DNA of 64,000 nt from Protoeuglena noctilucae. Its lineage: Eukaryota. The notes below the pieces were generated by a model, which was not told the origin of the DNA, made no database searches, and saw nothing but the letters and a program-made list of their open reading frames with translations. The translations under genes and the position numbers were made by a program. The DNA is taken from contig OY253670.1 of the NCBI GenBank assembly GCA_958009085.1, forward strand, positions 186,001 through 250,000, given 5' to 3'. Below, in pieces: positions 11,806 to 60,500 of the stretch (position 1 is its first letter; each line of letters starts with the position of its first letter).

Positions 11806-12322
11806 TGTCTGGGCAGGCCCCCCAAGCAACAAGACTCGCACGCGGCAGATCGCTCGACCGGAAGCCATCAAGAAGTGAGATCCAGGAACATCGCAGACAA
11901 ACATAACGATGCCCACCGGCACAGGCACACGCGCTCAGAAGGGCTCAGGAGGTGCGCGGCCGATGTCAGAGTGTGTCGCTGGCAGACGCTGTGGCGATGC
12001 ATGGTCAGGTGCACAGCATGACAAAGGCGGGTGAGGGTGTCACCATCGACCGGCTGCCATGCGCTTTCAAGCACTCTCAATGGAAAGGATGCATTTGCGT
12101 ATCACGGGCGCTGCAAGGCGATGGCGGCCTGTCACTCGCAGCCTCGCACCCGCACTGCACCAGCGTCGGTCCCTTGGTCACCTGCACTCAGCGGCGCAGT
12201 AAGTCAAGTCGCCGTCTAACCCGCGCTTGCGCTGCCCATGCCTGCTGCCCCTTAATCCACACAATGCACCACGCGGGGTCTGCGCCATTTCCCTCCCCAC
12301 GCCCTCACCTGGAAACCCGCGG

Positions 12323-13836
12323 TCAGCCGGGCTGACTGAGCCTGGCCCGTAGCTCCTCCACCCGACGCTCCACGGCACCCGGCTCTCCGCCCGTGTTGAC
12401 CAGGTCCGCGCCGCGGTCGGCCATCCGCAGCACAGCCTCGTGCCTCCCACGAGCCACGGCAATGCAGATGGGCGTCCTGCCCCCCCCGTCGCGCACCTCC
12501 AAATCTGCCCCGGCGTCCACCAGCAGGTCCACGCACGCGGCATGGTGGACCCAGTGCAGCGGCGTCTGGCCGTTGTCGTTGGCCGCATTGGCCTCCGCCC
12601 CCGCCGCCAGCAGCAGCCGCGTCATCTCCACGGCCTCGGCCTCACTCCCATGTCTCGCCACCGCGCAGTGGAGAGGCGTGTTAGCTGCCAAACCCCTGTA
12701 ACGGACGTCCGCGCCCAGGTCTATCAACGCGCGGACGGCGTCGACGCGACCTAAGACGCAAGTCATCTGGATGGGAGCGTTGCGGACCCCGCCGCCCTGG
12801 ACGTTCGCCCCGCGCGCCGCCAGCCACCGCACGACCTCCCCCGTCGCCGCGTAGTGCATCGCGGTCTCTCCACAGCCGTCGGTGGCAGTCACGTCGGCCT
12901 CCATCTCCTCCAGAACCTCCATCACAGCGAGGTCGCCTCTCCTGGCGGCTGTGAAGAGGGCCGAGGTGCCGCAGGGATGGACTGCGTCCACGTCCGCCCC
13001 CGCCTCCGCCAGCTGCCTCACGATGCCCGGCGTCGGCCGGCCCCCGCACACCGCAGCCAACATATAATCTTCGCCACTGCGCCCCAGCTTAACCGACGCC
13101 CCCGCCTCCAGCAGCGCCTCCACCACCGCCTCGTGACCCCCACGTCCGGCATGCACTACCGCCGTCCACCACGCCCTGCTGCAGTTGCCACTCCTTGCAT
13201 CCACCTCCGCCCCCGCCGCCAGGCACACCTTGACCGCCTCCAAGCAGCCCCGCCCCGCGCAGTACGTCATCAGCGGCCACGCTCTCTGCGTCCGCTCGTC
13301 GACGTCCGCACCCAACCCCACCGCCGCCCGCACCATTCGCGCCACCTCCCTGTCACCCAGCGCGTGCGCCCACTCCACCTTGCCGTCAGGCCCCCGCCCC
13401 ACCGGCCGCCGCGCCACCACGGCCACCATCAGCGGCGACTGGTCCATGTCCCGATTATTTCGCTCGGCCCATGGCATGGGGCGGGTATCCGACGCTCTCG
13501 CCACCAGCAGGGCCAGCCACCACAGCCCCAGGCTTGCCAGGTGGTGCGCGCGGGACCCCGAAAACACCCACACCGCCAGCGGACCGTAGTCAAGCATCGT
13601 TTCTCGCGCCCTTGATTTGAAACGGTTGCGTATATCCTCCCGCCTGTCCTCCGCTGTCGCCCGGATGCCCCACGCCCTCCACACCTCGTCCACCTCGTCG
13701 CGCGTCTCCCGCGACACCCCCCGCGCCGCCGTCGCGTCGCGCAGCGGGACCAGCCGCAGGATGTCGCGATGCATCTCCCCAGGCAGGTCATTCCACCCTG
13801 CGCGCGCGACCGGCCCACGCGGGGTGCCCTCACGAC
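12323..13836 (-). CDS. F-box-like + ankyrin-repeat protein, copy A
   Basis: Uninterrupted coding exon of about 1.5 kb. N-terminal [30 protein letters not shown], then about 8 ankyrin repeats ([42 protein letters not shown]). The start may lie in a small upstream exon (about 13900-14038). Confidence 0.88.
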
Positions 13837-14552
13837 CTGGCTAAAGCGTTGCGGGCAGGGGTGGTATCGCCGCAGGTGACCAGCCTACGTGTCGCTCACG
13901 CATACTGATCCCGGCTCCGTCGACCCGGGAACGTTGCGGCGCGGACGCCGTGGTGTCCAAGCTTCTCCAGCTCACTCCGCTCGCATGCTCGCGACCAACC
14001 AGGGCCAGGCTCGCATCCGGGGTTGCGATCGGGGACATTGACAGATGGCTCGGCCGACGCGCGCATCATCCCAGATGGCGGCGCAGCGGGGCAATCGCCG
14101 GCAGGCCTGGCGCGCACCCGACAAGGGGCCTCCCCCATGCGACCCGGGCACACTCGGACCCGGCGCAGTGCACATCTCGCGAGTTATCGGACGCGAGCCT
14201 GAGCCATCGGTCGCGAGCGCGCCGAGCGGAGTGAGCCGGAAGCCAGCTTGGACGTGACGCAGCTCGAGGCCTTGTCTGCGTCCGCGCCGCGACGTTCCGG
14301 GGCCGAGGGGCCCGAGTGCAAGGCGCGTGAGTGAAGCATGCAGCTGTTTGGCAGGACGGGGTCGGACGGGAGGCTTCCAACGCCGCGGCTGCGCTGGTTG
14401 GACGCGACGCGTGTTTGGGGGTTGTGACGTTGCGCAGCGGGCGTGTCCGCAGAGGAGGCCGCGATGCCGGGCGGTGCCAAGACCAAGCGAGCGTCGAGAA
14501 CCACGGGGAGGGGTCCGCACGTGGGTGAGGCGCGCAGAGGGAGGGCTTCGGG

Positions 14553-16112
14553 TTGCAAGGTCAGCAGCATCTGCCTCGTTGCGAACTTCTTGAGCCGGTC
14601 GCGCGCGCAGGGTGGAATGACCTGCCCGGGGATGTGCATCGCGACATCCTGCGGCTGGTCCCGCTGCGCGACGCGACGGCGGCGCGGGGGGTGTCGCGGG
14701 AGATGCGCGACGAGGTGGACGAGGTGTGGAGGGCGTGGGGCATCCGGGCGACGGCGCCGGTGGAGGGACCGCAAAAGTGCTTCTACGATCTCATTATGCG
14801 CAGGGAGCTCGATCATGAGCTCGACGGCGCCCCGCTGGTGGTGTACGCGCAGAACGAATCTCATGCGCACCACCTCGCGAGCCTGGGGCTGTGGTGGCTC
14901 GCGGTGCTGGTAACTGAGGCGGCCGACTTCAATGGCATGTCATGGGTCGTGCGTCCGGGTTGCGAGCGCGACCAGTCGCCGCTGACGCTGGCGGTGCTGG
15001 CGCGGCGGCCAGTGGAGCGGGGGGCGGATGGTGAGGTGGAGTGGGCGCACGCGCTGGGGGACGGGGAGGTGGCGCGAATGGTGCGGGCGGCGGTGGGGAT
15101 GGGGCCAGACGTCAACCGGCCTCTGCGTGGCGCATGGCCGCTGATGACGCACTGCGCGGGGCGGGGCTGCCTGGAGGCGGTCAAGGCGTGCCTGGCAGCG
15201 GGGGCAGAGGTGGATGCGCCGGGAAGTGATGGGTTCTGGGAGACGGTGCATGCCGGACGTGGGGGTCACAAGGCGGTGGTGGAGGCGCTGCTGGAGGCGG
15301 GGGCGTCGGCCCGCAGGGTCGTGCGCGATGTCGTGGACCGCACGTTGGCTGCGATGTGCGGGGGCCGACCGACGCCGGGGATCGTGAGGCGGCTGGCGGA
15401 GGCGGGGGCGGACGTGAATGCAGTGGATGACCGGGGTTATTCAGCCCTTCATTGTGCAGCTTTTCGGGGCAACGTGGCCGTAGTGGAGGCCCTGGTGGAT
15501 TTGGGGGCCGAGGTTGGTGTCACTATCATCATGGACGCCCATGGGCGCACCCCGATCCACGAGGCGGCGAATGGGGACGTGGTGCGGTTGCTGGCCGGGC
15601 GTGGGGCGAGCGTCCAGGGCAAAGAAAGAAACTTGTCCCCACTACAGATCGCATGCTTTGGTGGCCGCGTCGACGTCGTCCGCGCTCTGATCGAGCTGGG
15701 GGCGGACATTCATCACAGGAGCATAGGAGCTGAAACGGCTTTCCACGTGGCAGTGCGACATGACAATGTGGAGATGGTCGAGCAACAGGCTGTCGAGATG
15801 ACGAGGCTGCTGCTGGCGGCGGGGGCAGACCCCAAGGCTGCCAATGTGCATGGCTGCATGCCCCTACACGTTGCCAGCCACGCTGCATGCGTGGACCTGC
15901 TGCTCGACACCGGGGCAGTCCTGGAGGCGCGGGACATAGGGGGCAGGACGCCCATTTGCGTCGCTGCAACCACCTCGCCGCTCAAAGCCGAGGCGGTGCT
16001 GCGGATGGCCGACCGCGGCGCAGACCATGTCAACCCGGGCGGGGAGCCGGGGCTGGTGAAGCGCATAGTGGCGGGGCTGCAGGCCAAGCGCAGCGGCAGC
16101 CAGCTCGGATGA
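14553..16112 (+). CDS. F-box-like + ankyrin-repeat protein, copy B
   Basis: Paralog of copy [31 protein letters not shown]...GYSALHCAA, GRTPIHEAA, GCMPLHVA, GRTPICVAA. The true ATG is possibly at 14464 in a short first exon. Confidence 0.88.
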   Translation: MQGQQHLPRCELLEPVARAGWNDLPGDVHRDILRLVPLRDATAARGVSREMRDEVDEVWRAWGIRATAPVEGPQKCFYDLIMRRELDHELDGAPLVVYAQNESHAHHLASLGLWWLAVLVTEAADFNGMSWVVRPGCERDQSPLTLAVLARRPVERGADGEVEWAHALGDGEVARMVRAAVGMGPDVNRPLRGAWPLMTHCAGRGCLEAVKACLAAGAEVDAPGSDGFWETVHAGRGGHKAVVEALLEAGASARRVVRDVVDRTLAAMCGGRPTPGIVRRLAEAGADVNAVDDRGYSALHCAAFRGNVAVVEALVDLGAEVGVTIIMDAHGRTPIHEAANGDVVRLLAGRGASVQGKERNLSPLQIACFGGRVDVVRALIELGADIHHRSIGAETAFHVAVRHDNVEMVEQQAVEMTRLLLAAGADPKAANVHGCMPLHVASHAACVDLLLDTGAVLEARDIGGRTPICVAATTSPLKAEAVLRMADRGADHVNPGGEPGLVKRIVAGLQAKRSGSQLG

Positions 16113-16838
16113 CCAAGCATGCACGGTGAAGGCATGGAGTGGGGAAGGGGCAGAGTTGGAATGTGCTGCAGCGCTTGATGGATGCAGGAGGTGGCTGTGG
16201 TGGGCGGGCGCGTGCAAGTGGGTCTGACGGACTGCGCCGCTGAGTGCAGGTGGCCAACAGACCGGTGCCGGCGCAGGGTGGAGCAGGTCGAGTAGGCCGG
16301 GCATCCTGCAGAGGCGGCCCGCCCGGTGAGGCGGGCCGGCGCGTTCGGGCGGCGGTGCGGTGGGCTTGTGGTGCTGTGCCCGTATCGAGAGCATGCCGGG
16401 CACATCACGGGCAGTGCACAGGCGCAGCAACGTCTTCGACAGATGCCGATGCCGCTGCGTCTTTCTGTCTCGTCCTTTCCATCAGCTCAGACTGGGGCTG
16501 GCTGTGCTCTGTTGTCGAGAAACGGCTGTCGATGCCATTGGTCCGTCACAGATGACGCACGTTATCGTTCCTTTTCAATGAGGATTCGAGGAGAGGACGC
16601 GTAGGAATAGCTCAGGACCCTAACTGACAGAAGGAAGCCCCGCAAAGCAGGGCGAGCTAGTGGAAGAACAAGAGAAGAAGCAGATGGTCGCCGAGGTAGC
16701 GGCATTGGAGAGGAGTCTTGCCCCAACAAGCCCGCTTGGCCGGCTCAATGGGCGTGTGGATACTCTCAGCGCTTGGGGCGATTGCCTTGGCACGCAGCAA
16801 GCAGCTCCAGGTGCAGGTCCCAAAGGACGTGTCGTTTG

Positions 16839-19503: not shown

Positions 19504-19777
19504 CCCGCACTTGCTAGCGTTCGTATCGGTGCGTTGCATTCTCTTTCCTACATCACGCCTTTCTGACGCACTTTCTGTAGCTCCTGTCGCTCTTTGAAAG
19601 GCTCTGCGGCTTTCATATCGTCAAGTTTAGGCATCTCTAGCTGCCGCCGTGACAGTGGCCAGCGTAGGCGGCGCCGTTGCGCGAGGACCCAGGCGCATCG
19701 CGTGTCTGCTTCAGCTTCCCGGCCCAGGAGGGGCCCCAGCGTTGTCGCGCTCGCTTGGGAGCTTTTTGGAGGTCAAG

Positions 19778-22700
19778 ATGGTTGAGCCGAAGATGAAAGG
19801 GGAGCTGGGTGACATCCGCACCCAGCTGCAGAACATCATGCGCGCGGGCAACAAGCCCGAGGTGCAGGGGAAGCGGCGCGAGGTGTTTCGCCGCATGATC
19901 AACTACATGAGGTGCGAAGCGCTCGAGGGGTACCGCAGCGAGCTTCGAAACGGGCGCTCGCGTCTGCGGGCGAGCCGAGAAGGGAGCGCGGCCCCGAGCA
20001 ATGCCCCGACCGCTTCCGGCCCCCGCAGCATGGGCATGGACATGTCGCCGCTGTTCATGGATTGCGTAAAGCATGCCGCGAGCACGAACGACCTGGTCAT
20101 CCGCAAGATGATGTACCTCTACCTCAGCAACTACGCCAAGAGGTGCGCGCGCAATGCCGCTCTTTCCGGACCCGAATCGCCCTTCTGCAGCTTGCTTGGG
20201 AACTATACTTCCGCATTCTGTTACCCGCTGGGCCGAATGCCCCGTTCCTCGCCCGCCATCGCCGCAGCAACCCGGAGCTGGCCCTGCTCACCATCAACAT
20301 CCTCCTCAAGGACTGCAACAACCCCGATCCGACCGTCCGGTCGCTCGCCCTGCGCTCTCTCACCAACCTCCGCGTCGCCAACCTTGCTCAGTACCTCGCC
20401 GTGCCCCTCCGGCAGGGCCTGCAGGACCAGTGAGTCGCGGGGGCGCTGGCCGCGCTGCGCCTCGTCTTGGCTCGCCCGTGGTTCTTTGCCGCGTTCTTTA
20501 CATCGTATAACATCCTCTGGGCTACTCGCGAGCGGCTGAGACCGTGCGTATGCGTGCAGGAGCCCGTTTGTGCGACGCACCGCCGTGCTGGGCGTGCTGA
20601 AGCTCGCGCGCCTGCGCCGGGAGGCCGTGCAGGACTACGGGCTGCTCGAGACGGTCAAGACCCTCCTGACGACGGATCCGGACGCGCAGGTCATCTCCAA
20701 CTGCCTGCTGGTGCTGCAGAGCATCCCCGGGTGTGCCCCCAAGCCCAACAAGTCGCTCGTCTACGCGCTTCTCAACCGCATTCGCGACTTCAGCGAGTGG
20801 TCCCAATGCCTCGCCCTCGATTTCGTCGCGCGGTGAGGCGGCCCAGGCCGTCCAGCGTCCCTCCTGTCGCAGACAGCAGCGGCTTCCTCGGCCGCTCATC
20901 ATCCCCTCCGCTCGTCTTTGATTTGCTCAGGTACACGCCCGAGTCCGAGAAGGAGGTCTTCGACATCCTCAACGCCCTGGAGGACCGCATGCAGCACGCC
21001 AACTCGGCCGTGGTCATGGCCGCCGCCAAGATCTTCCTCCTCCTCACGCTCCCCATGGTCTCGACGCACCAGGAGGTCCTCGAGCGAGTCAAGGCCCCGC
21101 TCCTCACGCATGCCACCTCCTCGACCCCGGAGGTGCGGACCAGCCGCGGTCACGCGTGCCCGATTGCCACTCAAACAGCATGCGCAACCCCTCACGCACA
21201 GCCGCCGTTCGCCGTGGCATGACTGCGTCCCGGGCCTGCGTCACTGCGCTTCGTGCTTCGCCCCTCTCGCAGACGGCCTACGCTGTGCTCTCCCACCTGC
21301 GCCTCCTGGCCCACCGTGCCCCGGTGCTCTTCTGCGGATCCTACAAGAGCTTCTTCTGCCGCTACAACGACCCCTCCTACGTCAAGTCCGTCAAGCTCGA
21401 CATCCTCTGCGCCATCGCCGACTCGTCCAACGCCTTCGACATCGTCACCGAAATCTGCGAGTACGTCGCGGACGTGAACGTCGGTGAGGGCCGGGGCGCA
21501 AGGGAACGGGGCTTAAGGTGTCTGCGCGTGGAGCCGTGCGTGACGCACGCAGCGTCTCGTTGCGGCGCTCGGATGGTCGGGTGTGGTCGCCCGCAACTGC
21601 GCTGAGCGAGAGCGCATAGGTTTGCTTGCCTGACGTGTACGCCTGTCGCCGCCCCCCATCTTCCCAGAGCTGTCCAAGGAGGGAGTGCGCGCAGTGGGCT
21701 TCATCGCCCAGTCGGTGCCAGACACCTCGGGCCTCGTGGAGCGCCTCCTCTCTTTCCTCGACATGGGAAGGCAGCACGTGGTGGCTGAGGTCATCAAGCA
21801 GCTCCCGGACATCGTCAGGCGAGCGCGGGCTCTTGCGGGGGCCGCAGCATGTGTGGGCTTGGGCCATGGGCATGTCATGTGTGACGGGCGACATCGGGCA
21901 CAGCGCCTGCAAAGGGCGAACCGCCTGCCAACTGCTTTGCCCTCTGTCCCAGGCGTTACCCGGAGTCGGTGGACCTGGTCGTCAACACGGCAGTCACCGT
22001 CGACCTCGCCCAGGTGTCGGACCCGGACGCACGGGCCGCCTTCATTTGGCTCCTGGGCACGCACGGCCAGGCACTGCGCAACACGCCGTACGTCCTCGAG
22101 GTGGCCGTCGAGCAGTTCGCATGTGAGCAGCGGGCCGTCTAATGGGGCGTACCTGCGGGGGCGCAGGACATGACATGTGCTGTTGCGTCTCATGACGCAC
22201 TGAGCGACTGCGTGGTTGCAAAGGCGGGGTGTATGACGTGGGCCGTGTTGAGATGTAATGACCCGTGCTCTGTCCACCCTGCAGCGGAGAGCATCTCTGG
22301 AAAGCTTGCGCTGCTCACGTCCTGCGCGCGCGTCTTCTTCCGCCGGCCCCACGAGATGAAGCCCACTTTGGGGGCCGCGCTGGCTGCGGGTGCCAGTGAC
22401 CCGAGCCGAGTTGTGGCGGAGAGGGCGGTCATGTACCACCGCCTGCTGCGGCAGGGAGTGGACGAGGCGGAGAAGGCGAGGGATGGAGGGATGCTGGGAG
22501 CATGGCTGTGGCATGGCTGCGTTGAGATTGCGAGGATACAGACACCCTTGCATCTGCTCCGCTGGACCAGAAGGGCTTCTCAGCCCTGGCGCACTTGGGT
22601 TGTAATGATTTGCTTCCCTGTCATTAATGTCATCGCCAGTCATCCTCCCTCTCGCTCGCAGATCATCGCTGCGGCGGTGCCCCAGGGATCCCACTTCCTG

Positions 22701-30237: not shown

Positions 30238-31418
30238 TCAGAGCACCTTCTTGGCCTTAAAGAATCTCCGCAGGTAGCAGATCTGGGCGGCCGTGAGCGT
30301 GATGGAGATGGCGAGCGTCGCCACGGAGAAGAAGACCACGCGGGTGTTGACGCGCTCGTTCAGGTCCCGCATCTCCTCCTCCTGCTTCCTGCAAGTGCCG
30401 GGTACTAGGGGGCGCGCCCTTGCACACGCGCGCCACCACGCTCGCCCCTCCGCACGGCGTCACTGCCGCAGTCGACGCGCCCTGCGCCTCACCGGTTTGC
30501 ATCGCCCACGTCGCCTCACCGGATCGTGCTCATCTCCTCGTACAGCGAGTTGGCCACGATCTCCAGCTTGCCCAGCTCCGCCACCAACGCGTCCATGTGC
30601 TCCTTGTCCACCAGCTTGTTCCAGTTCTCCATCTGCATCCCGACGTGCCACGTCAGGCCAATCTTTGTCTGCGAGGCCACCTGCGGCGGGGTGGGGAGGA
30701 ACAGAGCTACGGTACCGTTGCGCCCCTCCCAGGACCCTCCTGCTCGGCTTCTGCCGATCCTGCTGGCCGAACAACGATGCCGCGCTCACCCCCTGGGAGG
30801 GCGCGTTGAAGCACGCGCGATAGGTTCCCGCCGTTTCCGCATGGAAGGCAAAGAAGCCCTCTGTCTTGTCGGCCTGGTTGTACAGCACCTTGCCGTCGGG
30901 GGCTTCCACGGTCACAGTTAAAGCCACCGCTGCAGGGAGAGGGCAACGATGTTCGGTCGCGCTGGGACGGCGGGGCGCGGCGCGGGCGGGCAGGAGAGCG
31001 GGGCGCGACTCACGCTCCCCGTTCGTCCGGTTCTTCCCATTCCACGTGCCCAGCACCACGCTCTTCTCCGCAATGGCCTCCGTGAGACACCGTTGCTGCT
31101 CCGTCATTTCCACTTCAAACGCCCTGGGAGAGAGGGAGCGCACGGAGGGGTGGGACACTTGCCACGGGAGATCGTCGCCCTGGAGCCATGCCGTCGCATA
31201 ATGTCGTCCTTGCATGTACATATCGCTCAATTCTACACTGGGAAGTCCTCGGACCTGACTTTGGAAACCCCAGAGTGCGGCATCAGGTCTCTGAAGGTGC
31301 ATGCCGCGCACAGCACCGCCCTGCGCCGCGAGCAGCTGACCGATCCTCACCAGGCGCCGCCTGCCAGGACCACCAGCCCCAACAATGTCGCCAGGCGATT
31401 CCACCATCGCCCCGTCAT
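30238..31418 (-). CDS. p24/TMED cargo receptor, delta-like (GOLD domain)
   Basis: Signal peptide MTGRWWNRLATLLGLVVLAGGAW. GOLD cysteines in QRCLTE and FAFHAETAGTYRACF. Then MRDLNERVNTRV, a TM helix, and the tail YLRRFFKAKKVL* (FF + KKxx). Confidence 0.92.
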
Positions 31419-31674
31419 CTCTCCCAGCCCTTGGACCCGCCCAGCCCCGCGATCTGCGCCCCTTCGACGTCACCGATCGAATGCTGTACCTCAGCTCGAT
31501 CCAGCTGCTTGCTTTGCACGGGCGTTCGTCCGCGGTGGCTGCATCGTTGCCGCGAGGATCCGACTGACCATCGTCTGGCAAGTCACGCCAGGTGCCAGCT
31601 CGTCGTCCTCCACGCGTGGTTGCTCTCGCAGCTCGTGCATCATTCAGTGCCGCGGCGCGGACTCGTAGGATGTC

Positions 31675-40883: not shown

Positions 40884-42071
40884 ATGCAGCTTTGGCGAAA
40901 GCTCCCGGTTACAATCAAGTAAGCGTTGCGCTGGTTGCCGCCGCATTTGGCTGGCTTATCTCGTGACTAAGCACGCTCCCCGCGCTCACCTCACAGGGCC
41001 GCGCCATCTCGCGCAGTCAGCGTCAGCGCCGCCGAAAGCGCTCCCCACACCATGGTCACATTGGTGAGGACGTCGCGACTTTCGGCTTTGGGGCAAAAGG
41101 GCTGGCTTCGTCGCAGTAGCTTACCAAGTGCCCAGCCACGCCTTACTGAGCTGCCCAGCCGCGCCTTATAGAGCTGCCACGCCGCGCCTGACCGCAGCGT
41201 CATGTCCCGGAGAAGAGCCTCCACCTCAGCAAGCCGACCTCGTGGCTGACCTCACGGTTCCACTTCTCGTTCGCGGAGTACTTCGACCCAAGCAACGCGG
41301 AGTTCGGCGCCCTCCGCGTGATGAATGACGACCTGGTCAAGGGGAAGTCAGGTTTCCCGCCTCATCCCCACCGGGACTACGAAATCTTCAGCTACGTGGT
41401 CGACGGGAAGCTCTCGCACCAGGACAGCATGGGCAACAAGGAGGCCCTCGGGCGGGGATCGGTGCAGTACATGTCGGCCGGGCGTGGCGTGGTGCACAGC
41501 GAGATGAATGAGGAGCGGGAGACGTGCCGCTTCATCCAGGCAAGCAAGCAGGCCGCGCCTGAGATCGCTAGCGTGGGTTTCGCGCTATCTGCCATCGCGC
41601 AACGTGTGCTTGCTACCCCGTTGACTGCAGACGTGGATCAAGCCGGACCGCAGCGGGCACGACCCGCAGTACGGATCCCAGACCTTCGACGAGTCGGAGC
41701 GCAAGAACAAGCTTTTGCAGATTCTCGGTGGCACGGGCGCGGCGCCCCAGTGGGGCCAGGCCTCCAACAGCGGCATGGCGCGCCTGCACCAGGACGTCAA
41801 CGTCTTCGCGAGTGAGCTGGACGCGGACGCGGGCCTGTCGGTCAAGATGAGCGCCGACCGGCAGGCGTACCTGCTCTGCATCGAGGGGTCCCTCCGCGTG
41901 GCCACGTCCCGGGACGAGGTGCAGCTCAGCGAGCGGGACGCTGTGGAGATCGTGGGGAACAAGGCGGCCGAGCCGGTGGAAATCAAGGCCGGGGGCAGCG
42001 GGGCGCATCTGCTCATGGTCGAGATGAAGAAGACCGGGCACCAGCGGCGGGGTAGCGCGCGCGAGCTGTGA
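40884..42071 (+). CDS. Pirin-family cupin (YhhW-like) with short transit-like extension
   Basis: WLTSRFHFSFAEYFDP...FGALRVMNDDLV...GFPPHPHRDYEIFSYVVDGKLSHQDSMGN...VQYMSAGRGVVHSEMN...RFIQ|TWIKP. Confidence 0.93.
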
Positions 42072-43838: not shown

Positions 43839-46237
43839 ATGGCGATTAAGAACACAAAGCGGGCCCCCGAGCCCTCCAGCGAGGTGCGGCGGTGCAGCGT
43901 CCGCGTGCCGCTTCGTTGCGTTGCGAAATGTCGCACGGGTGCTTGGTCCGCCTCTGCTTTTGCCGCCGCCGGCGCGGCGAGGGGCAAGTTGCCGCGCGCC
44001 CTCGTGCGACGCGCCGGGCGCCTGCCTCGCCGCGCCGCTGCTGCCCCGCGGCCGGACCGAGCTCCAGAGCGGGCCGTTTGAGCCGGAGCCCTGGATACGG
44101 CGCCGCCTGGCCGCCCGGCCGTCTTGGCTGCTGGTACCGGAAGGGCTCCGGCATTGCCGCCAGGGGCCCCCTCGGGGACCCGCGCCTCTCCTGCGTGGGC
44201 CTCTTTGAGTTGACTTCATGACAGCGCGCCGGCGACTCCTCGCGACCCTCACCCGCCGCGCACGACCTCGTTTCCCTGTCCTGCCCTAAAGGCGCTCCCG
44301 CCGGGCGCGGACGGCGTGGGAGCGCGTGCTCCTGCGCCCTTTCGGCTCACCTGTTCGACGATACTCGCTCCCCACGCCCCTGGCACCGCCTTTCCCCGCC
44401 AGCCGCCCTCGCTCGGTGGCGTCTCCCCGCCCTAGCCCGCATGCGGCGCACCCAGCCGCTGCGGCGCCGCTTTTCCTCCTCAATGTCGCATGTTTGAGGA
44501 CCGGGGGACCTCGCGGGGCGTGTGCGCCGCGTCCCAACCGCTTTTGGGCGTTCGCCCGGAAGTGACCCCCTCCCGCCCCTCCTCGCGCCCGCAGTCCTCT
44601 TCCTCGTCTTCTTCGAGCATGTCGGACTCGGAGCAGGCCAAGCAGGCGGCGGAGGTGCGGCGGCTGGCGTGCACCGTGCGTCCTCGCCAGCTGCCCCTCG
44701 TGCGTGCCACACACAGCGTCCCCACGCCCGTTCCTCCCCGCAGTCCTCCGACTCGGAGACGAGCTCCGACTCGGGTGCCAAGGCCGCCCCCAAGGCCGCC
44801 GCCAAGCCGGCAGCCAAGCCGGCCGCCAAGAGCGACTCGTCCGACTCGTCCGAATCCTCTGACTCGGACTCCGAGGCCAAGGCGCCCCCGGCAAAGAAGG
44901 GCAAGACCGTCCCGGCCGCCAAGGCCGCTCCCGCCAAGGCCGAGTCGTCCGACTCGTCCAGCTCGGACAGCTCTGACGACGACGAGCCCGCCAAGCCCGC
45001 CGCCAAGGCCGCCCCCGCCAAGGCAGCTGCCAAGGCAGCGTCTTCGTCGGACGAGGAGTCCTCCGACGACTCTTCCTCGGAGGAGGAGGCGGCGGCGCCC
45101 AAGGTGCGGCGTCAGATGGCCCTCGACGTGACGTGGCTTGGCACGCGGCCTGCACTGGCCTGACGGAGGGCGCGTGCCTGAGGCGCCTCTTGGCCCGCGT
45201 GGCACGCTCGGCCGAACCGCCTTGTCCTCTCTTTCTTGCAGGGCAAGGCCGCCGCCAAGCCCGCCGCCGGCGACGACTCCTCGTCTGACGCGTCGGGGTC
45301 GACGTCGGACAGCGAGAGCGAGAAGGAGGCTCCCAAGGCGGCCAACGGGAAGAAGCGCGCCCGTGACGACGAGGACGAGGAGGAGGGTGAGGAGGAGGGC
45401 GAGGAGGAGGGTGACGAGGAGGAGGCGCAGGCCCACCCGAGGAAGCGCGTGGCCGTCGAGGGCGAGTGCCGGGGGGTGTTCGTGGGCAACCTGTCGTGGG
45501 GCGCGACGGAGGACGGCCTCCGCAAGTTCTTCAAGAAGTGCGGCGCCATCGAGAACGTGCGCATCGCCACGGACCGCGACACGGGCCGGTCCCGCGGCTT
45601 CGCCCACGTCGACTTCGCGGACCCCTCGGCGGTCGCCAAGGCCTGCGAGCTGGACGGGCAGGACCTGGACGGCCGCGCGCTCCGCGTCAACCCCGCGGAC
45701 CAGAAGCCCGCGGCGGGGGACCGCGGCGCGCGTCCCGCCGGCCGCGAGCGCGACGATAGCCGCACCGTCTTCGTCAAGGGCTTCGACAAGTACCAGGGGG
45801 AGGATGACGTGCGCAAGGCGCTCATGGAGGCGTTCGGAGCGTGCGGCAAGGTGGCCAACGTCCGGCTGCCGACGTCCCCCGACGACGGCAACCTAAAGGG
45901 GTTCGCCTTCATCGAGTTTGCCGACGCGGACGCCAAGAATAAGGCCGGCGAGCTGCACGAGACGGAGGTCGCGGGGGGCTACATCCACGTTGACCTGGAG
46001 CCGGGGAAGGGCAAGCCCGCGGGCGGCGGGTTCGGGGGGCGCGGCGGCCGGGGCGGCTTCGGGGGCGGCTTCGGGGGCCGGGGCGGGCGCGGGGGCCGCT
46101 TTGATGGCGGCCGGGGCGGGCGCGGGGGGCGCTTCGACGGCGGCCGGGGTGGCCGTGGGCGCGGCGGGCCCTCGGCCAAGGCAAAGGGCACGATCGACTT
46201 CAGCGCACCCAAGCAGAACAAGAAGGTCACGTTCTAG
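43839..46237 (+). CDS. NCL: Nucleolin (plant/Nsr1 type: acidic Ser-rich N-terminus, 2 RRMs, RGG/GAR tail)
   Basis: MAIKNTKRAPEPSSE|SSS..., alternating SSDS/KAAPAK blocks, RRM1 VFVGNLSW...RGFAHVDF, RRM2 VFVKGFD...KGFAFIEF, RGG repeats, and NKKVTF*. Confidence 0.93.
46020..46170 (+). repeat. GGC-rich tandem repeats encoding the nucleolin FGGRGGRGG (GAR) domain
   Basis: Repeated GGCGGC(TTC)GGGGGCCGGGGCGGGCGC-like units. Confidence 0.85.
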
Positions 46238-49600: not shown

Positions 49601-52600
49601 GACCGCTCACCTCACTCTCTGCGTCCGAATCTGGGTCCCACTTGAGGAGGTGGTCGGCGGAGAGCTTGTTCTCTGCCACGCGTTGGCTGACCGACCGTCG
49701 CATGGTACGGGAGGTGGCCGCGGCCATGGAGCGGGCGAACTGCTGCTCCATCGTGGGCGGAGGAATCCTGCAAACGCGGACCGGGGCACGCAGGCATTGC
49801 TTCACGCATGGCTGCATGCACAGCGCAGCGGAAGGCGAGCCTGCGAAAGGCATGCTGGAGACTCCTACGCACCACGATCCCCGTCAAAGCCAGCCAGCCC
49901 GTGCGGTTGTCTGTACAACCACAAGCTGCTGACGAAGCGCGGCGATCTGCAGCGGCGTCGGCAGCCCATCACCTCCGCAGTAGGTTGGCGAGGTTGCCGG
50001 GATGGCTGCTGGTGACGGACGCCTGGGAGTCGGCGAGCTTGGCGATGCCGGAGATCTCGCTGAGGCTCGCGCGGTGCATGCCCGCCGCCACGCGGTGCTC
50101 GTTGACCACCCGCTGCATCCGCTTGGCGCGGCCCAGCATGTCCTCGGCCCTGCCCCTTGCCTCCTCCACCGCGGTCACTACGGAGCTGAGCTGGTGCTTG
50201 CGCCACGCCAGGATGGCGCGGCAGTGGTCGCGCATGCGCATCACGTCGCGTGGATGCACCAGCCTGCGGAGCGCGGGCGGGCGGGCGCGGGTGGGGCGGC
50301 ACGCATGTAGGGAAGGGAATGGTAGGGCGGCAACTCAGTCCCCGACCGGTGAAGAGCATCTGCTCTCACTTCTGGAGCACTTTTTGCTCGATCTGGAAGA
50401 CCGAGACGTCGGTCACCGCCACCACCGAGTGCGTGTGCGTGGCGCTCTGCCCCGCCACCGTGTCCTCCCCGCAGAAATCCTTGACGCCCAGCGTAGCCAC
50501 GGGCACCCGACGCGTCCGCTTCAGCTTCCCCGCCATGACGTCCTCTCTGCGAGTGCGCCACGGGAGCGAAAAGGACTCCACAAGCTGCAGCACCGTCACA
50601 GCACGTGCCTTCAGCAATGGCAGTCGCGCAGCTGTGTGCGCAGGGACCGCTGGGGTCACCTCAGCACGGTCGTCATGGACCTCCGTTCGTTCTTCAGGTC
50701 CGGCACGTCCTCGACAACGCAGCTCTCCACCATGCATGACCCCGTCTCGATCACATACACCGCATCGGCCGTCTGCCCCTCGTGGTACAGCGTCGACTTG
50801 GCTGGGAAGCGCAGGCGCTGGGCAGCAAATGCCAGAGCCCTGGGGACAGACACGAAGCCACGAGTTGGAGAAATGGACACAGGGGTGTCACAGCCTCAGC
50901 CACAGCGACACAGCCACGGCGGCCATTGCCAGACACGCTCCGCCCCATCGCGGCGTGTCACCTGAGGTCGGTGGAGTGGATGGTGCTCTGCACGATTGGA
51001 GCGGATGTCAAGAAACCGACCTTTTTCTTCAGCTCTCCGTCGAACCCCTCTGTCTGCGCGGGGCGTGCGAGCGGGAGCAGGGCGATGAGCAGCGCGCCCA
51101 GCGAGGTGCATGTGACGTGCTCGGGCTCCACGCGGCACTCAAGCTGCAGCTTCGTCGATCATCGATGCCGAATGCATTTCGCCATCTCATGGGCAGCGCA
51201 TCCCACTGCCCCCTCACCAGGATCGTGTGGTATTCGCTGCCGTCCAGGTACACCAGGTCCGACTCCTCGTTGGCCAAGACGGTGATCTTGTACTCGAAGT
51301 TCTCCAGAACCGACACTTCCCCGAAGAAATGCGACTCGAGATATTCCCTGCGAGACGAGGTGCGACATGAGTGCAGCGCCGCGTGCCACGGGCAAAAAAA
51401 CGCATTCCAAAGCGGGACATCAGTGGTGCGCTGCTTCGCGCTCTCAAATCCTGCCGCTTTGCGCTCCCGGTTTCTGCACCGTGACTCTGGTGCACGCTGC
51501 GAGTAGGTGGGCGCTGTACCCTCACCTCTCCCACAGGGACGGCCCGGTGCCCTGCGGGTCCTCCTTCATGACCCACTTGCGGTCGGGGGGCTTCCCGAGC
51601 TTCAGCTTGCTCGTCTGCGGGAAGCCAAGCACGTCTCGGTATCTCAGCATCCCATGCGCAGCGACGGGAGGCCGTGGGATGGGGGCGTCGCACACCACCG
51701 CAGCCCCTCGCCGCATAGCACCGACCACCATGGAAACCAGGCAACGCCAATCATCTCAGCATTGGGCAAATCGCTAGCTATAGGCCTCTCGCGACTCTCT
51801 CAGCCACTCCCTCACCAGGATTTCCACAAACTCCTCGAACTCCAGCTCCCCGCTCCCGTCGTCATCCACGCCCTCCAGCAGCTCCGCGATGTTCTCCTGC
51901 GACGCCAGAGGACAAGCAAGTGAGGGAGACATACTGCGATTTGCGCACGCAAGGAGCGCGAGGGCTGTAGAGGCGCCCAGAGCTGCGCCCAGGAGATGCA
52001 AGGACGCAACGCAGTCGCGCCCCTCGCCTCAGACAGCTGTATGCCCATCATTTCAAGGGCCGTCTGGAGCTCTTCCGCGTCGATGGCCCCGCTTCCGTCC
52101 GCGTCGATGGAGTTGAACAAATCGCGCATCTCCTGCTCCGACACTCCGCCCGCGCCCCCGGACGACCGCTCCTTCGCGCTGCCCTCCGCCTGCCGGTGCT
52201 GCTCATCCGACTTGTTCTTCAGCGGCGCGGGGTCCTCGGTCGTCACCGTCACCGACCCGCTGCGGGCCAGACGCGAGCCAGAGGTGGGCGCGACAGCCGG
52301 AGCAGCCCACCGCAGCGCCAGGCAGAGTGCTGCGAAGGCGGCAGACGCCCCGCCACGCGCGGAGTTTAGGCACCTCATGACGTAGAAGAACTGGCAGCCT
52401 TTGAGGATGACCGTCTCCCCCGCCCCGATGCGCTTGAGCTTGGCCACGTAACAGAGGTCCGTGTGCACCGCCTCGCCCTCTTGCGTGAACAGGGGCACCT
52501 CGGCCGTCTCCTCCCGGATGTGGCTGATGTCCAGGACGCTCCGGTTCTGCGCCTTGCGCTGCAGGGCCTTGCGAATGCGGCTGAGCTTGGAAATCCGCTC

Positions 52601-52603
52601 CAT
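46689..52603 (-). CDS. Large protein with two cyclic-nucleotide-binding (CNB)-like domains, an EF-hand pair and a long low-complexity C-terminus
   Basis: LCYVAKLKRIGAGETVIL...FFYVMSGSVTV, EF loops DADGSGAIDAEE and DDDGSGELEFEE, HFFGEVSVL, then LRFPAKSTLYHEGQTADAVYVIETGSC...FCGED. Exon phases are largely consistent to TAA at 46689. The 5' end is uncertain. Confidence 0.75.
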
Positions 52604-53484
52604 CTGCCTGCGTCGCGGGGGCGAGCAGGGCGCGACGTCGTCCTCACATTCACCCACATACACAACAACCCCGTCTCTAACGGAAACTGCATAAAGCAAG
52701 CCTGGGGAGGTCGCCGGCCCGGCCTGCAGCCCCGGCAGGCTGGAATACGCAGGTGCGTCCGCCGATGGGGGAACTATGGAGCTAATACAGCTCGAAACGC
52801 TTCTTTGTTGGCCACTGAAACTGGAGACGCTGCCGCGCTGCTAGAAAGCGCCTGGTCCGAACAGCGAACGTGGCGAGGAGGTCGGGAAGGAGGCACCCTC
52901 GATTCGCGAGCCGGGATGTGCATGGTGCTCCATGTCGTCCGAAATCGCTTTTCTAAGCAATACGAGGCACCCATCCGAGCACAGGCACGGTGGAAAGGGG
53001 GCGTACAGCGGTCGCGGTCGCAGGTCAGGGACCATCGCATGCCGTCTCACTTGTACAGCCCCGCAAGCAGATTGGAGCCCTTGTCCGCCATCCCCCCGCC
53101 CCTTGTTAGCTAAGGCCCGACAGGGCAACCACGAAACGGCCGGCGCCGTGCCGGGCCGAGGCCCGCGAGCCTCAGCAAGTGCGTCGCCCTAGTCCACGCT
53201 CGGCAGGGCGCCTGGAGGCCACGGCTCCAAAGAAAGGGATGTTGGAAACTGGTTTATTGGCTCGCTAAGAATTGCTGACGGCAGAAGCCTTCAGCGAAGG
53301 ATGTGCCGGTACGCCCCATGCCAGACCACCAGACAGGCATTTCCACATGCCTGTTCATGGCCATGGTCCACGAGTTGGCCAGCAGCAACTGGTTGAGATA
53401 AGTCTCGGTGGTGGCCCTTTAAAGGGCGGAGCAAAGTGCACGGCGTGCAATGATTTTCATACTGCTGAGGCTGATACGCTGCTG

Positions 53485-57500: not shown

Positions 57501-60500
57501 CTGGACGCTCAGCACCAGCCGGCTCAGCTGCCGCATCGCCCGGGACTTCTTGAGCAGCTCGTAGATGGCCTTGAAGTACTTCGATCTCCTGAAGTGCGAG
57601 CGGGTCACCCCCTGGCTCGACGCCCCGTCCTCCTCCTCCTCCGTGTTCGTGTGCACCAGCGACTCGTCCCCGCTGTCGTCCGAGTCCTCGGACCCCGCCG
57701 TCGACTCCTCCGCCTCGTCGCGGCCCTCGTCCTTGCCCAGCACCACCGCCCTGCCCTTCGCGGGCTCCTCCGCCACCCGCGCGCCCTCGCGGATCTCCCC
57801 GCCCGACACAGTCCCGCCCATCCGCACCACGTTCTTCACCAGCGCGGCCGCCGCGCCGAACGTGACCCCCGATCGCTCGCGCTTGGGCGTCGTCGCGTTG
57901 GCTTCCGTGGAGGACGACCCCATTTCGCCGGAGTCGCGCTTGGCGCCGCCCTGCTTCCCTCCCAGGCGCACGCGCGACGGCCCCTTGCCGGCATCGCGGT
58001 CCAGGATGACCTGCGGACAGGCGAGCAAAGAGAGTCGGTGTCCCGTTCTCAGCATGTGATCTGTTGCCGCAAGGCCTGGGCTACTGCTTGGCGGGGCTTG
58101 CAGACATGAGCGCAGGCTGCAAGGCAAGCAACAGGACCAAAGCAGGCACGACAGGGCGCTGCAGCGCGCACAGCCGCCCCCGCCTCGCCTGCATGCGGTG
58201 CAGGGCCTCCGTGGCCGGCTCGCACGCCTCCTGCACGGCCCGCACGACCAGCGTGACGCGCTTCTTGCCCGCCGACACCGTGTCGCCCGACCCCAGGAGC
58301 GAGACGCGGAGGGTCGAGTCGTCCGCGTGGCGCAGGTGGAGCTCCGCGGAGGGCTTGCGGCCCTCGAGCACGTCATCGACCTGCCCCGGCGTGTCCTCCA
58401 CGAACAGGCTCGACAGCGCGGAGCGCACGAGCCGCGAGGCGGGGCGGCCCGACAGGACCTCCATGCGCGGGCTGGCGGTGAGGATGACGCCGGCGGGGGA
58501 CACCTGCATCTCGCCCTGGAGCCAGTTGGCGCTCCAGACGTCGAGCACGAACCCGTCCCGCACCGCCTCGACGTCCGCCTCGCCGCGGAGCACGCCCAGC
58601 TTGCGCAGAGAGGGCAGGTTGACGCGCGTGGCGGCCACGCGCTGCACGGCCAAGCGCGCGGGGACGAGGTCCTCCGTGGCGTTGTAGGGCCCGGGGGGGC
58701 AGCGGAAGGCGGTGCGGAAGGAGGCGATGCCCGAGGTGGCCCCGACGCGGCTCAGCTGCTCGAGGGCCCCGGCCATGACGTCGCCGACGGGGATGGACGA
58801 GTTGAACTTGCGCGCGGCCGTGACGGTGGCGGAGAGCACCTCGATGAAGTCGGCGACGTTGGCGCCGGCCAGGGTCTCGGCGTTGATGCCGAAGACGCCC
58901 CCGGCGACGCCCTCCTTGACGAAGCCCGTGCCATGGCCGACGGTGACGACGGCGCCCTGCCGGTCGACAAGGATGCGCAGGCAGATCTGCTGCTCCACCT
59001 GCCCCTCGATGCTGCGGAATCCCCAGGGGGCCAGGGCCGCGTTGGGGCGGGTCTTGCGGGCCAGGCAGACGTACATGGGCGCGGAGGTGGCCGCGTCGCG
59101 CTGCGTCGTCCACGACAGGACCACGGGGACCTGGGCGCCCTGGTTGCCACGCAGGATGACGATCTGGCCCATCTGGCAGGGCACGTGCATGGCCGCGCGG
59201 TCCGAGCTGACCACGGCGCGGGGGAGTCTGGTCTGGTGGAAGCGCCCGAAGCCGCGGGGCATCAGGTGGCTCACGTTGGCGCCGGCGTCGATGAGGCTGC
59301 CGGCGGGGTAGCCCAGCGCCGACTCCAGGGGCGAGTTGACGTAGAGGATGCGGCCGTCGCGGCTGCACACCAGGATGCCGCCCGGCTCCTCGTCCAGCGC
59401 CACCGTCATGGCCACGATCGCGTCGTCCCTCCTCCCGACCAGCGAGAAGGACGCCTTGGAGGCCAGGCCTGTCTTGAGGTATTTGTGCCGGATCACCGCC
59501 GCCATCCCCGACACCACCTCGGCCTGCGCGAGCTCCCCAGCCTTGTCGGCCTGCGCCGCGTTCCCGGACCTGTGGAGCAGCAGGCTCCCGTTCTTGAACA
59601 GCTCCTTCCCGTTGCCCGGGGCCGCCCTGTCGGCGTTCGTCTCCGGGGCAGCCTCGCGCGGCGGCTCCGGCGCCACCCTGTTGCCGACGTCGCTCATCCG
59701 CACGCGTCGCATCTTGGTGCTGAACGCGGGGCCGAGGCTCTCGGCAAGCGAGGTGCGCTCCTTCTGGCTCTCGCGGAGCGACGGCTGCACGACCGGGCCA
59801 TTGAGCGACAGGGAGTCCTGCGACCGCCGCAAGGGATTGCTCGTCAGGGACCTCAGGATCGCGCCTGGAGCGCCGCAATCGAGACGCGGGCCGCCGGCGC
59901 GGCTGCCGACCTCGCACCGCGCGGGGTCACGCACCTTGATGGCCGTGAGGCCTTGCTCCAGGTCGAGCCCGTCCAGCGCGAGGCTGTTGATGCTTTGCCC
60001 AAATACCTCCTTGGACTCCCACCCGAGGAGGTTGGTGAGACCCTCGGACACGCACAGCACGCTCCCGTCCAGCGTCATGTAGAGGATGCCCTGGGCAGGG
60101 TCGACGTCCGCGGGGCGGATCGAGGCCATGAACTGGTCCTGCCCGTCCTGGACCACGTGCACGACGCGGATCTTGATGGGGAACGCCGAGCCTGCAGGGG
60201 CAGAGCGCGGGGGACCGAGTGACGTTCGCAGCAGCGAGTGGTGCCAGGTTGATGCTCAGTGCTGCGCGGGCTTTGACTCAAGACACGACTAGCAGCAGTA
60301 ATACAGTCTCAGTTCTCTTGTGGAACCGGCACGTCCCGCTCACCGTCCTTGTGCAGCCCGATCTGCAGGCGCTCCGTACCGATGATCCGGGGCTGCCGGG
60401 TCTGCTTGAAGGCAGCGATGTAGCCGTTGTGGTGCTGGCTGAAGGGCTTGGGCATGAGCACTGCGACGGGCACGGGTGGCGAGGTTACGTCATGCTGGCG

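Follow-up and report, generated by a model that had tools for sequence, protein, structure and literature searches.

The 64-kb window analysed here is a stretch of contig OY253670.1 from Protoeuglena noctilucae (positions 186,001 to 250,000; coordinates below count from its first letter), and it contains a head-to-head pair of genes with an F-box-like N-terminus followed by ankyrin repeats. The locus is probably an inverted pair from a lineage-restricted F-box/ankyrin family, whose members are likely receptors of SCF (Skp1-Cullin-F-box) ubiquitin ligases and whose near-identical blocks would stem from exchange between paralogs.

The head-to-head gene pair

The two open reading frames (ORFs) are both present where the preliminary description of this DNA had placed them and lie in divergent orientation. 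The ORF of gene 1 (P0001) occupies 12323-13774 on the minus strand and encodes 483 amino acids, and that of gene 2 (P0002) occupies 14553-16112 on the plus strand and encodes 519 amino acids. All blocks and patches quoted in that description could be located in the two translations, which have 307 identities in 492 positions (62%) and 17 gap positions in BLASTP. The alternation of near-identical blocks with divergent patches goes beyond chance. The longest identical run between the genes, over 1497 aligned nucleotides with 379 differences, is 69 nt; after shuffling of columns the longest run had a mean of 21.7 and a maximum of 53, and 69 was reached in 0 of 5000 shuffles. By tblastn, gene 1 and gene 2 are the only family copies in the window. 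The main exons and the arms of the inverted repeat are as follows.

12323-13797, minus strand: main coding exon of gene 1, stop codon at 12323-12325, from the ORF list and translation
14611-16112, plus strand: main coding exon of gene 2, stop codon at 16110-16112, with RNA contigs over 15389-16124
13708-13817: left arm of the inverted repeat, 110 nt, 96% complementary, taking in the beginning of the F-box and ~20 nt at the end of the upstream intron
14591-14700: right arm of the inverted repeat, 110 nt, partner of the 13708-13817 arm

The inverted similarity outreaches the coding sequence by about 20 nt, into a common 'cag' acceptor context, and weaker inverted matches are also found in the spacer between the genes. 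Because the similarity passes beyond the coding sequence and the introns in the 3' untranslated regions (3'UTRs) are homologous, the pair is, on sequence evidence, an inverted duplication of complete genes.

Probable exchange between paralogs

The contrast between near-identical and divergent blocks drawn in the preliminary description is real, but it does not simply reflect purifying selection on the protein, as synonymous sites are conserved too and the family is mosaic. The proportion of synonymous differences (pS) is 0.00 over 30 F-box codons and over one 15-residue block, and 0.8-0.9 in the variable patches. Codons for identical residues differ synonymously in 9% of cases in conserved neighbourhoods versus 28-35% in variable ones (r 0.25, p 6e-6), and across the F-box 38 codons in succession are identical (p 0.0024). 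The synonymous rate (dS) is 0.26-0.38 in the framework versus 0.70-0.98 on the recognition face.

Mosaic structure is seen across the family, whose members are counted here as clusters at 90% identity in public data. Perfectly identical runs of 77-339 amino acids, with the remainder 49-70% identical, occur in 23 protein pairs that involve 26 of the 60 proteins compared, and the changeover falls within conserved blocks near residues 167-222 and 273-289. P0003 is composed of the N-half of gene 1 and the C-half of gene 2. One N-half is combined with four different C-halves in P0009, P0012, P0014 and P0016, and one common C-half is found in P0009, P0011 and P0013. All 11 pairs with N-halves at least 95% identical have C-halves below 75%, and all 5 pairs with C-halves at least 95% identical have N-halves below 75%; these counts arise partly by construction, since clustering at 90% drops pairs that are alike in both halves.

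The family thus has both low-dS blocks and mosaics with incongruent halves, the latter in public assemblies that could be chimeric. Synonymous conservation together with identical half-gene segments in 26 of 60 proteins argues that the blocks are shaped by gene conversion or recombination between paralogs, with assembly chimerism as a possible part of the cause. Assembly chimerism cannot explain the synonymous-site pattern within the single contig of the window. Recurrent gene conversion or recombination at conserved stretches would be the simplest reading, and the mosaics are presumably biological rather than products of assembly.

An inversion was considered as the source of P0003 and set aside as the simplest reading. 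The reciprocal product (gene 2 N-half with gene 1 C-half) was found in neither the full-length nor the word-based N-terminal search, and for this reason P0003 is better explained by an assembly chimera or by one arm having converted the other. No strand-changing joints between copies were reported in the aligned contigs, which break at repeated blocks.

Family size and distribution

The family has many paralogs, not just the two in the window. A full-length protein search returned at least 58 further clusters at 45-87% identity, below which came only generic ankyrin proteins at about 30% identity. Nearly all family clusters derive from ENA assemblies, on contigs of up to 1.27 Mb. The N-terminal 175 residues matched 45 proteins in a word-based search, all with Ank and all of this family, and an exhaustive profile search with the N-terminal module gave 44 matches in 1,835,955,588 representative proteins. 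When the full-length alignment was used as query against metagenome contigs, the best 80 of 98 matches were only generic ankyrin loci at 23-40% identity. The N-terminal alignment as query against genome contigs found one locus, L081, present as a single copy in its metagenome-assembled genome (MAG). Given the 58 clusters, the 44 module matches in 1.84 billion proteins and the absence of a relative from the viral contigs searched, the family is judged to be lineage-restricted and large. No description of an algal F-box/ankyrin family was found in the full-text literature, with subscription journals outside the coverage.

The stretch itself is found in sequencing runs of one organism and also in marine metagenomes and metatranscriptomes. 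In run X1, 218 contigs fall on a 4.8-kb stretch, 120 of them at 95-99% likeness, and this pile would fit pieces of many paralogs. The summed contig depth in conserved blocks reaches 10663 versus 112-147 in the flanks, a figure that is not a copy number.

L081 (L081:1-8501) lies in a MAG titled Cyclobacteriaceae, on a contig of 303983 bases, with the family copy in a 4.2-kb segment at 62-70% GC. One flank has 36% GC with a DNA-methyltransferase-like ORF and the other 43-56% GC with a ribosomal L25-like ORF, both named by eye. Horizontal transfer into a bacterium was rejected as an explanation, since the GC steps of 36% to 62-70% to 43-56% indicate a chimeric assembly. The copy (L081:3923-5494) carries two in-frame stops.

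F-box and ankyrin genes are abundant in giant viruses. An origin of the pair from such a virus, as an endogenous viral element or a recent transfer, would agree with genes that are almost intronless in an intron-rich genome, with long single coding exons amid fragmented neighbours, with a GC content at third codon positions (GC3) lower than that of the neighbours and with a Nucleocytoviricota ankyrin cluster at rank 19 of the look-alikes by features. This origin is nevertheless hardly credible. Among 2.9 million viral contigs there were 42 pattern matches and 0 confirmed relatives, and the GC content of the pair equals that of the window around it (62-72% throughout). The genes have spliceosomal introns in the 5' region and the 3'UTR, one of the latter RNA-confirmed, and the flanks are single-copy and host-like with eukaryotic housekeeping domains. 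The nearest Atlas clusters by features are from Chlorophyta and Ascomycota, with Chlorophyta leading.

The N-terminal F-box

The F-box of each gene was delimited as follows.

14613-14735, plus strand: gene 2 F-box with three helices, P0002 residues 21-61
13673-13797, minus strand: F-box segment of gene 1, the homologue of P0002 residues 21-61, with fold evidence from the gene 2 model

The two segments differ little over 41 codons, with a pS of 0.03 and a proportion of nonsynonymous differences (pN) of 0.03. Pfam F-box matches P0002 residues 21-56 at E 0.005 and finds no match in the P0001 ORF. Across the family, 32 of the 60 members have a PF00646 match at E<=0.1, the best of them at 2.9e-5. 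More distant relatives were reached by the profile of the N-terminal module, and 6 of the 11 that were scanned pass the Pfam F-box cut-off with 24.1-33.8 bits, most having Ank as well.

In the AlphaFold model of P0002 the F-box helices span residues 26-35, 38-45 and 49-61. Model residues 1-45 were compared with 48161 chains in an unfiltered structural search, and the best 8 matches are all F-box domains from SCF complexes, namely Fbw7 (Z 6.9, root-mean-square deviation (rmsd) 1.4 over 43 residues), FBXL17, FBXL5, FBH1, FBXO42, FBXL2, Skp2 and Legionella AnkB. Together they have Z scores of 5.7-6.9 and an rmsd of 1.4-2.6 over 40-46 residues. The gene 2 model has a three-helix fold superposable on F-boxes solved with Skp1, at Z under 8, where a match can reflect a common arrangement. 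The weak top rows of Foldseek for the N-terminal segment are F-box entries as well. The N-terminal F-box and ankyrin array of the preliminary description are supported by Pfam on the family and its relatives and by the predicted fold, the F-box of the window copies themselves being sub-threshold in Pfam. By architecture and likely mechanism the proteins are most likely SCF substrate receptors, with Skp1 docking and ligase function as predictions.

Proteins that join ankyrin repeats to an F-box are known elsewhere. Poxviruses, Wolbachia/Orientia and Nasonia have ANK-PRANC proteins, multigene families in which ankyrin repeats are followed by a C-terminal F-box-like PRANC that binds Skp1. These resemble the algal family in coupling ankyrin recognition to an F-box-like element in multigene families. 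However, the F-box is N-terminal here (residues 21-61) and PRANC is C-terminal there, and the C-terminus of P0002 is a single helix (501-515) without an F-box match. Legionella pneumophila AnkB (PDB 5k35, with Skp1) has the same order of an N-terminal F-box and then ankyrin, and the model F-box superposes on it with Z 5.7 and rmsd 2.2 over 45 residues. AnkB is an injected bacterial effector, a 164-residue chain with few repeats and no detectable sequence relationship, whereas the algal genes are eukaryotic and intron-bearing, with about 11 repeats and a family of dozens. Ascomycota also have F-box/ankyrin proteins, seen as ESM Atlas clusters named 'F-box domain-containing protein' in which 100% of the members have Ank, a likeness of features and not an alignment. 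The exhaustive search with the N-terminal module found the 44 proteins only, so the algal family is separate from them by sequence.

The ankyrin array

The remainder of gene 2 was divided into two regions.

14736-14852, plus strand: variable linker, residues 62-100, with a helix at 74-86 and a mean entropy of 1.87 bits
14853-16013, plus strand: ankyrin array, residues 101-487, a non-canonical N-cap with beta insertion and then nine canonical helix pairs

Ank_2, Ank and Ank_4 are found in both ORFs at E 1e-33 to 1e-37, and Ank Pfam families are found in 60 of 60 family members. The full-length P0002 model (predicted local distance difference test (pLDDT) 83.3, predicted template modelling score (pTM) 0.82) has three N-terminal helices followed by repeated helix pairs. 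Both ORFs have multiple hidden Markov model matches over the cut-off, and the gene 2 model has stacked helix pairs; the predicted number of repeats per protein is about 11.

The second ankyrin-like repeat (14943-15050, P0002 residues 131-166) carries a conserved beta insertion, with strands at 131-134, 137-141, 150-156 and 162-166 in the model. The insertion holds a near-invariant VEWA.ALGD block without counterpart in the canonical repeats. Acidic low-complexity inserts rich in D, S, E and Q are found in P0011, P0013, P0019, P0034 and P0036, in the loop matching P0002 residues 125-139. The number of repeats also varies. Extra copies of a C-terminal repeat unit of the type TPLH...ACVD.L..AGADLEARD occur in P0004, P0024 and P0044, which suggests that the array also grows by internal duplication.

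Variability and selection

Column entropy over the 60 family members averages 0.51 bits in the F-box, 0.83 in the GADVN-type turn, 1.10 in helix 2, 1.58 in helix 1, 1.87 in the linker and 2.19 in the hairpin loops. Variability is therefore non-random, focused on the recognition face of hairpin and helix 1, with a constant F-box, as had been proposed from the two genes; a family of many paralogs with variability on the binding surface is what was found. The same entropy pattern is expected in any ankyrin family, in which these positions are structurally unconstrained. In designed ankyrin repeat proteins (DARPins) the hairpin and helix-1 positions are randomised. The variable columns of the algal family belong to the same class of positions (the register was not mapped position by position). 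Unlike DARPins, the family is natural, and a lack of structural constraint would by itself lead one to expect variability at such positions.

Selection was measured by the Nei-Gojobori method on three DNA copies (gene 1, gene 2 and L081). The ratio of nonsynonymous to synonymous rates (dN/dS) is 0.57-0.65 for the whole gene, 0.48-0.53 on the recognition face and 0.42-0.90 in the framework, and the dN of the F-box is 0.03-0.06. The most variable codons were defined as the 43-45 columns with entropy of at least 3 bits, the window pair and P0003 being excluded from the entropy calculation. At these codons pN/pS is 1.29 [0.92-1.88] for the window pair (43 codons) and 0.91 [0.63-1.48] and 0.90 [0.68-1.25] for the other pairs; pS and pN are both 0.55-0.71, near saturation, and all bootstrap intervals include 1. 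The most variable sites evolve at about the neutral rate. The diversifying selection proposed in the preliminary description was not borne out in the three copies, either in the whole gene, on the face or at these codons. Site models of the PAML type would be invalid without gene segmentation, because recombination is seen.

Two other explanations of the family bear on these values. In wild isolates of C. elegans, positive selection in the substrate-recognition domains of expanded F-box genes is documented (PMC8120010). A repertoire of this immune-like kind, in which ankyrin faces under diversifying selection would track viral or parasite proteins and deliver them to the proteasome, would account for a constant F-box with a variable recognition face, a large lineage-specific expansion, mosaic reshuffling of halves that would multiply specificities, and the 1.29 that the window pair shows at its most variable codons. 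We consider it unlikely. The dN/dS of the face is no higher than that of the framework in any of the three pairs, the other two pairs fall at 0.91 and 0.90, and the caveats of saturation, of intervals including 1 and of positions free to vary in any ankyrin family apply to all of them. In addition, the lower GC3 of the pair (0.80-0.85 vs 0.93-0.94 in neighbours) and one pseudogene both fit relaxed constraint.

These last two observations are also what neutral birth-and-death of a dispensable family would produce, by duplication, gene conversion and decay, with most copies lacking a specific target. Such 'genomic drift' has been put forward for the F-box genes of plants (PMC3030570). It is a fairly unlikely explanation here. 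In its favour, the rate at the face sites is close to neutral, two stops make one copy a pseudogene, codon adaptation is below that of neighbouring genes and many database members are fragmentary or truncated. Against it, the truncation mostly comes from ORFs having been called in prokaryote style on a gene with introns, the F-box and framework are clearly constrained (entropy 0.51 bits and low dN in the F-box), both window copies have long intact ORFs, and field samples contain spliced transcripts of gene 2.

The expanded F-box families known from nematodes and plants share with the algal family a constant N-terminal F-box, a variable C-terminal recognition domain, a large lineage-specific expansion and a context of high recombination. 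The algal family differs in its ankyrin recognition domain, its green-algal host and its prominent segmental mosaicism, and positive selection is documented for those other families and not for the algal one.

Gene structure and expression

The remaining exon and intron features of the pair are as follows.

14464-14524, plus strand: putative exon 1 of gene 2, a basic 20-residue peptide and one base of the next codon (phase 1), where RNA contigs are absent
14525-14610, plus strand: putative 5' intron of gene 2, 86 nt, GT..AG, with a phase that fits exon 2; no RNA joint seen
16125-16248, plus strand: 3'UTR intron of gene 2, 124 nt, GT..AG, spliced out in RNA
12182-12308, minus strand: putative 3'UTR intron of gene 1 (GT..AG), by homology with the gene 2 intron, with donor GTGAGG and a shared acceptor motif; no RNA contig over it

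Field samples show transcription and splicing of gene 2. RNA contigs from two metatranscriptome runs of a single study (X9, X10) have the joint 16124>16249, and the DNA contigs of X1 and X2 read through. For gene 1, an RNA contig of X10 covers 12404-13008. Both paralogs have a homologous GT..AG intron 12-17 nt past the stop codon, with near-identical acceptor contexts.

At the 5' end of gene 2, an ATG at 14464 opens a basic peptide that ends at a GTGAG donor (14525), the frame of gene 2 being open upstream of the first plausible start. Splicing out 14525-14610 (acceptor 14610/14611) keeps the frame in phase 1, and gene 1 and L081 have kept the sequence next to the acceptor. Similar peptides occur at the head of the read-through ORFs of several paralogs and in the spliced JGI model P0061. 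The 5' intron and exon 1 are accordingly given as putative; no RNA contigs lie over 14054-14536, which leaves the predicted intron region uncovered.

The listed ORF of gene 1 starts at ATG 13774, and the F-box frame runs on upstream to a predicted acceptor at 13798, with GWNDLPGE in frame and a 'cag' acceptor. The basic exon seems to have been lost, and a candidate donor 'ATGC|GTGAGC' at 13903-13894 would restore the full F-box. On the gene 1 side of the spacer, an RNA contig of X9 covers 13860-14026, while 14054-14536 has none. Transcription of the shared spacer may be asymmetric, at a low depth (4.5) where carry-over of DNA is possible.

Genomic neighbourhood

The neighbouring ORFs, at 19649-22139, 30460-31581, 41625-42068, 45182-46234, 51812-52699 and 58084-60255, are pieces of ordinary eukaryotic genes. 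Their domains are Adaptin_N/Cnd1-like HEAT, emp24/GOLD, a pirin C-terminal cupin, two RRMs (nucleolin-like), EF-hand and PAS. Since the long ORFs of the window bear only fragments of eukaryotic domains, the stretch is taken to be nuclear DNA of an intron-containing eukaryote. No other F-box/ankyrin copy or transposon-like domain was seen among the window ORFs scanned. The best named relatives of the nucleolin-like RRM ORF are from Monoraphidium (53%), Volvox (52%), Polytomella (51%) and Coccomyxa (46%). The host is accordingly read as a core chlorophyte of marine habitat, to which none of the named proteins is closely related. GC3 is 0.85 in gene 1 (12326-13798) and 0.80 in gene 2 (14610-16109), and 0.93-0.94 in the neighbouring RRM (45182-46234) and PAS (58084-60255) ORFs. 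The difference from these two long exons suggests a weaker codon adaptation of the family.

Weight of the evidence

Several results weigh against the pair being SCF receptors shaped by paralog exchange. The F-box of the window falls under the Pfam cut-off (17.1 vs 20.5 bits), and the structural Z scores of 5.7-6.9 are in a range that small helical units commonly reach. With Foldseek there was no match at E<=0.001, a search of PDB sequences with the N-terminal profile had 2 matches at E<=10, neither of them an F-box, and a model of the N-terminus only had a mean pLDDT of 56.9. The ORF of gene 1 begins within the F-box, and the RNA contig at 13860-14026 is unspliced across the candidate donor. 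The two in-frame stops in L081 mean that part of the family may be non-functional. With regard to exchange, the database mosaics, being from public assemblies, may be chimeras in which the assembly jumped at identical blocks, and low dS in conserved blocks could partly stem from residues identical by chance in poorly homologous patches.

The low Pfam score, the PDB profile search and the modest Z would also suit a three-helix motif that is a family-specific cap or localisation element and not a functional F-box, the proteins then being plain ankyrin scaffolds. This is very unlikely, as the best 8 of 48161 structural matches are all F-boxes, 6 of 11 distant relatives pass the Pfam cut-off and no part of the protein is more conserved than this motif.

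Proposed mechanism and significance

An inverted pair of SCF receptor genes shaped by paralog exchange would work as follows. In each protein the three-helix F-box, preceded in gene 2 by the product of a predicted short 5' exon that is basic and resembles a nuclear localisation signal, would be followed by a linker helix that varies, about 11 ankyrin repeats and a helix at the C-terminus. In a marine core-chlorophyte alga these proteins would serve as interchangeable substrate receptors of SCF ubiquitin ligases. The constant F-box would dock Skp1, and the concave hairpin/helix-1 face of the ankyrin repeats would bind targets that presumably differ among paralogs. Repeated exchange among paralogs at conserved stretches would keep the F-box and the ankyrin framework near-identical, even synonymously, while patches of the recognition face would retain old divergent sequence and evolve at or below the neutral rate.

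A further step would be a combinatorial repertoire of SCF receptors for antiviral recognition and degradation, made by swapping half-genes or smaller cassettes among dozens of paralogs at framework blocks, including between head-to-head arms, with P0003 as an example. This is quite unlikely. If true, a cassette-swapping repertoire would be the counterpart, in a eukaryotic microbe, of the cassette-based diversification of antigen receptors or var/VSG, tied to ubiquitin ligation.

Expanded F-box receptor families are leading candidates for ubiquitin-based innate recognition in organisms without canonical immune receptors, and work on them has been confined almost entirely to nematodes and plants. 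The locus adds a green-algal example with two useful properties, namely ankyrin binding positions that are structurally predictable and a clear footprint of paralog exchange. If the mosaics are artefacts, they would be a warning for the annotation of repeat families in eukaryotic metagenome bins. If they are real, the family would provide a tractable case of gene conversion and selection shaping a recognition repertoire in a virus-exposed marine alga.

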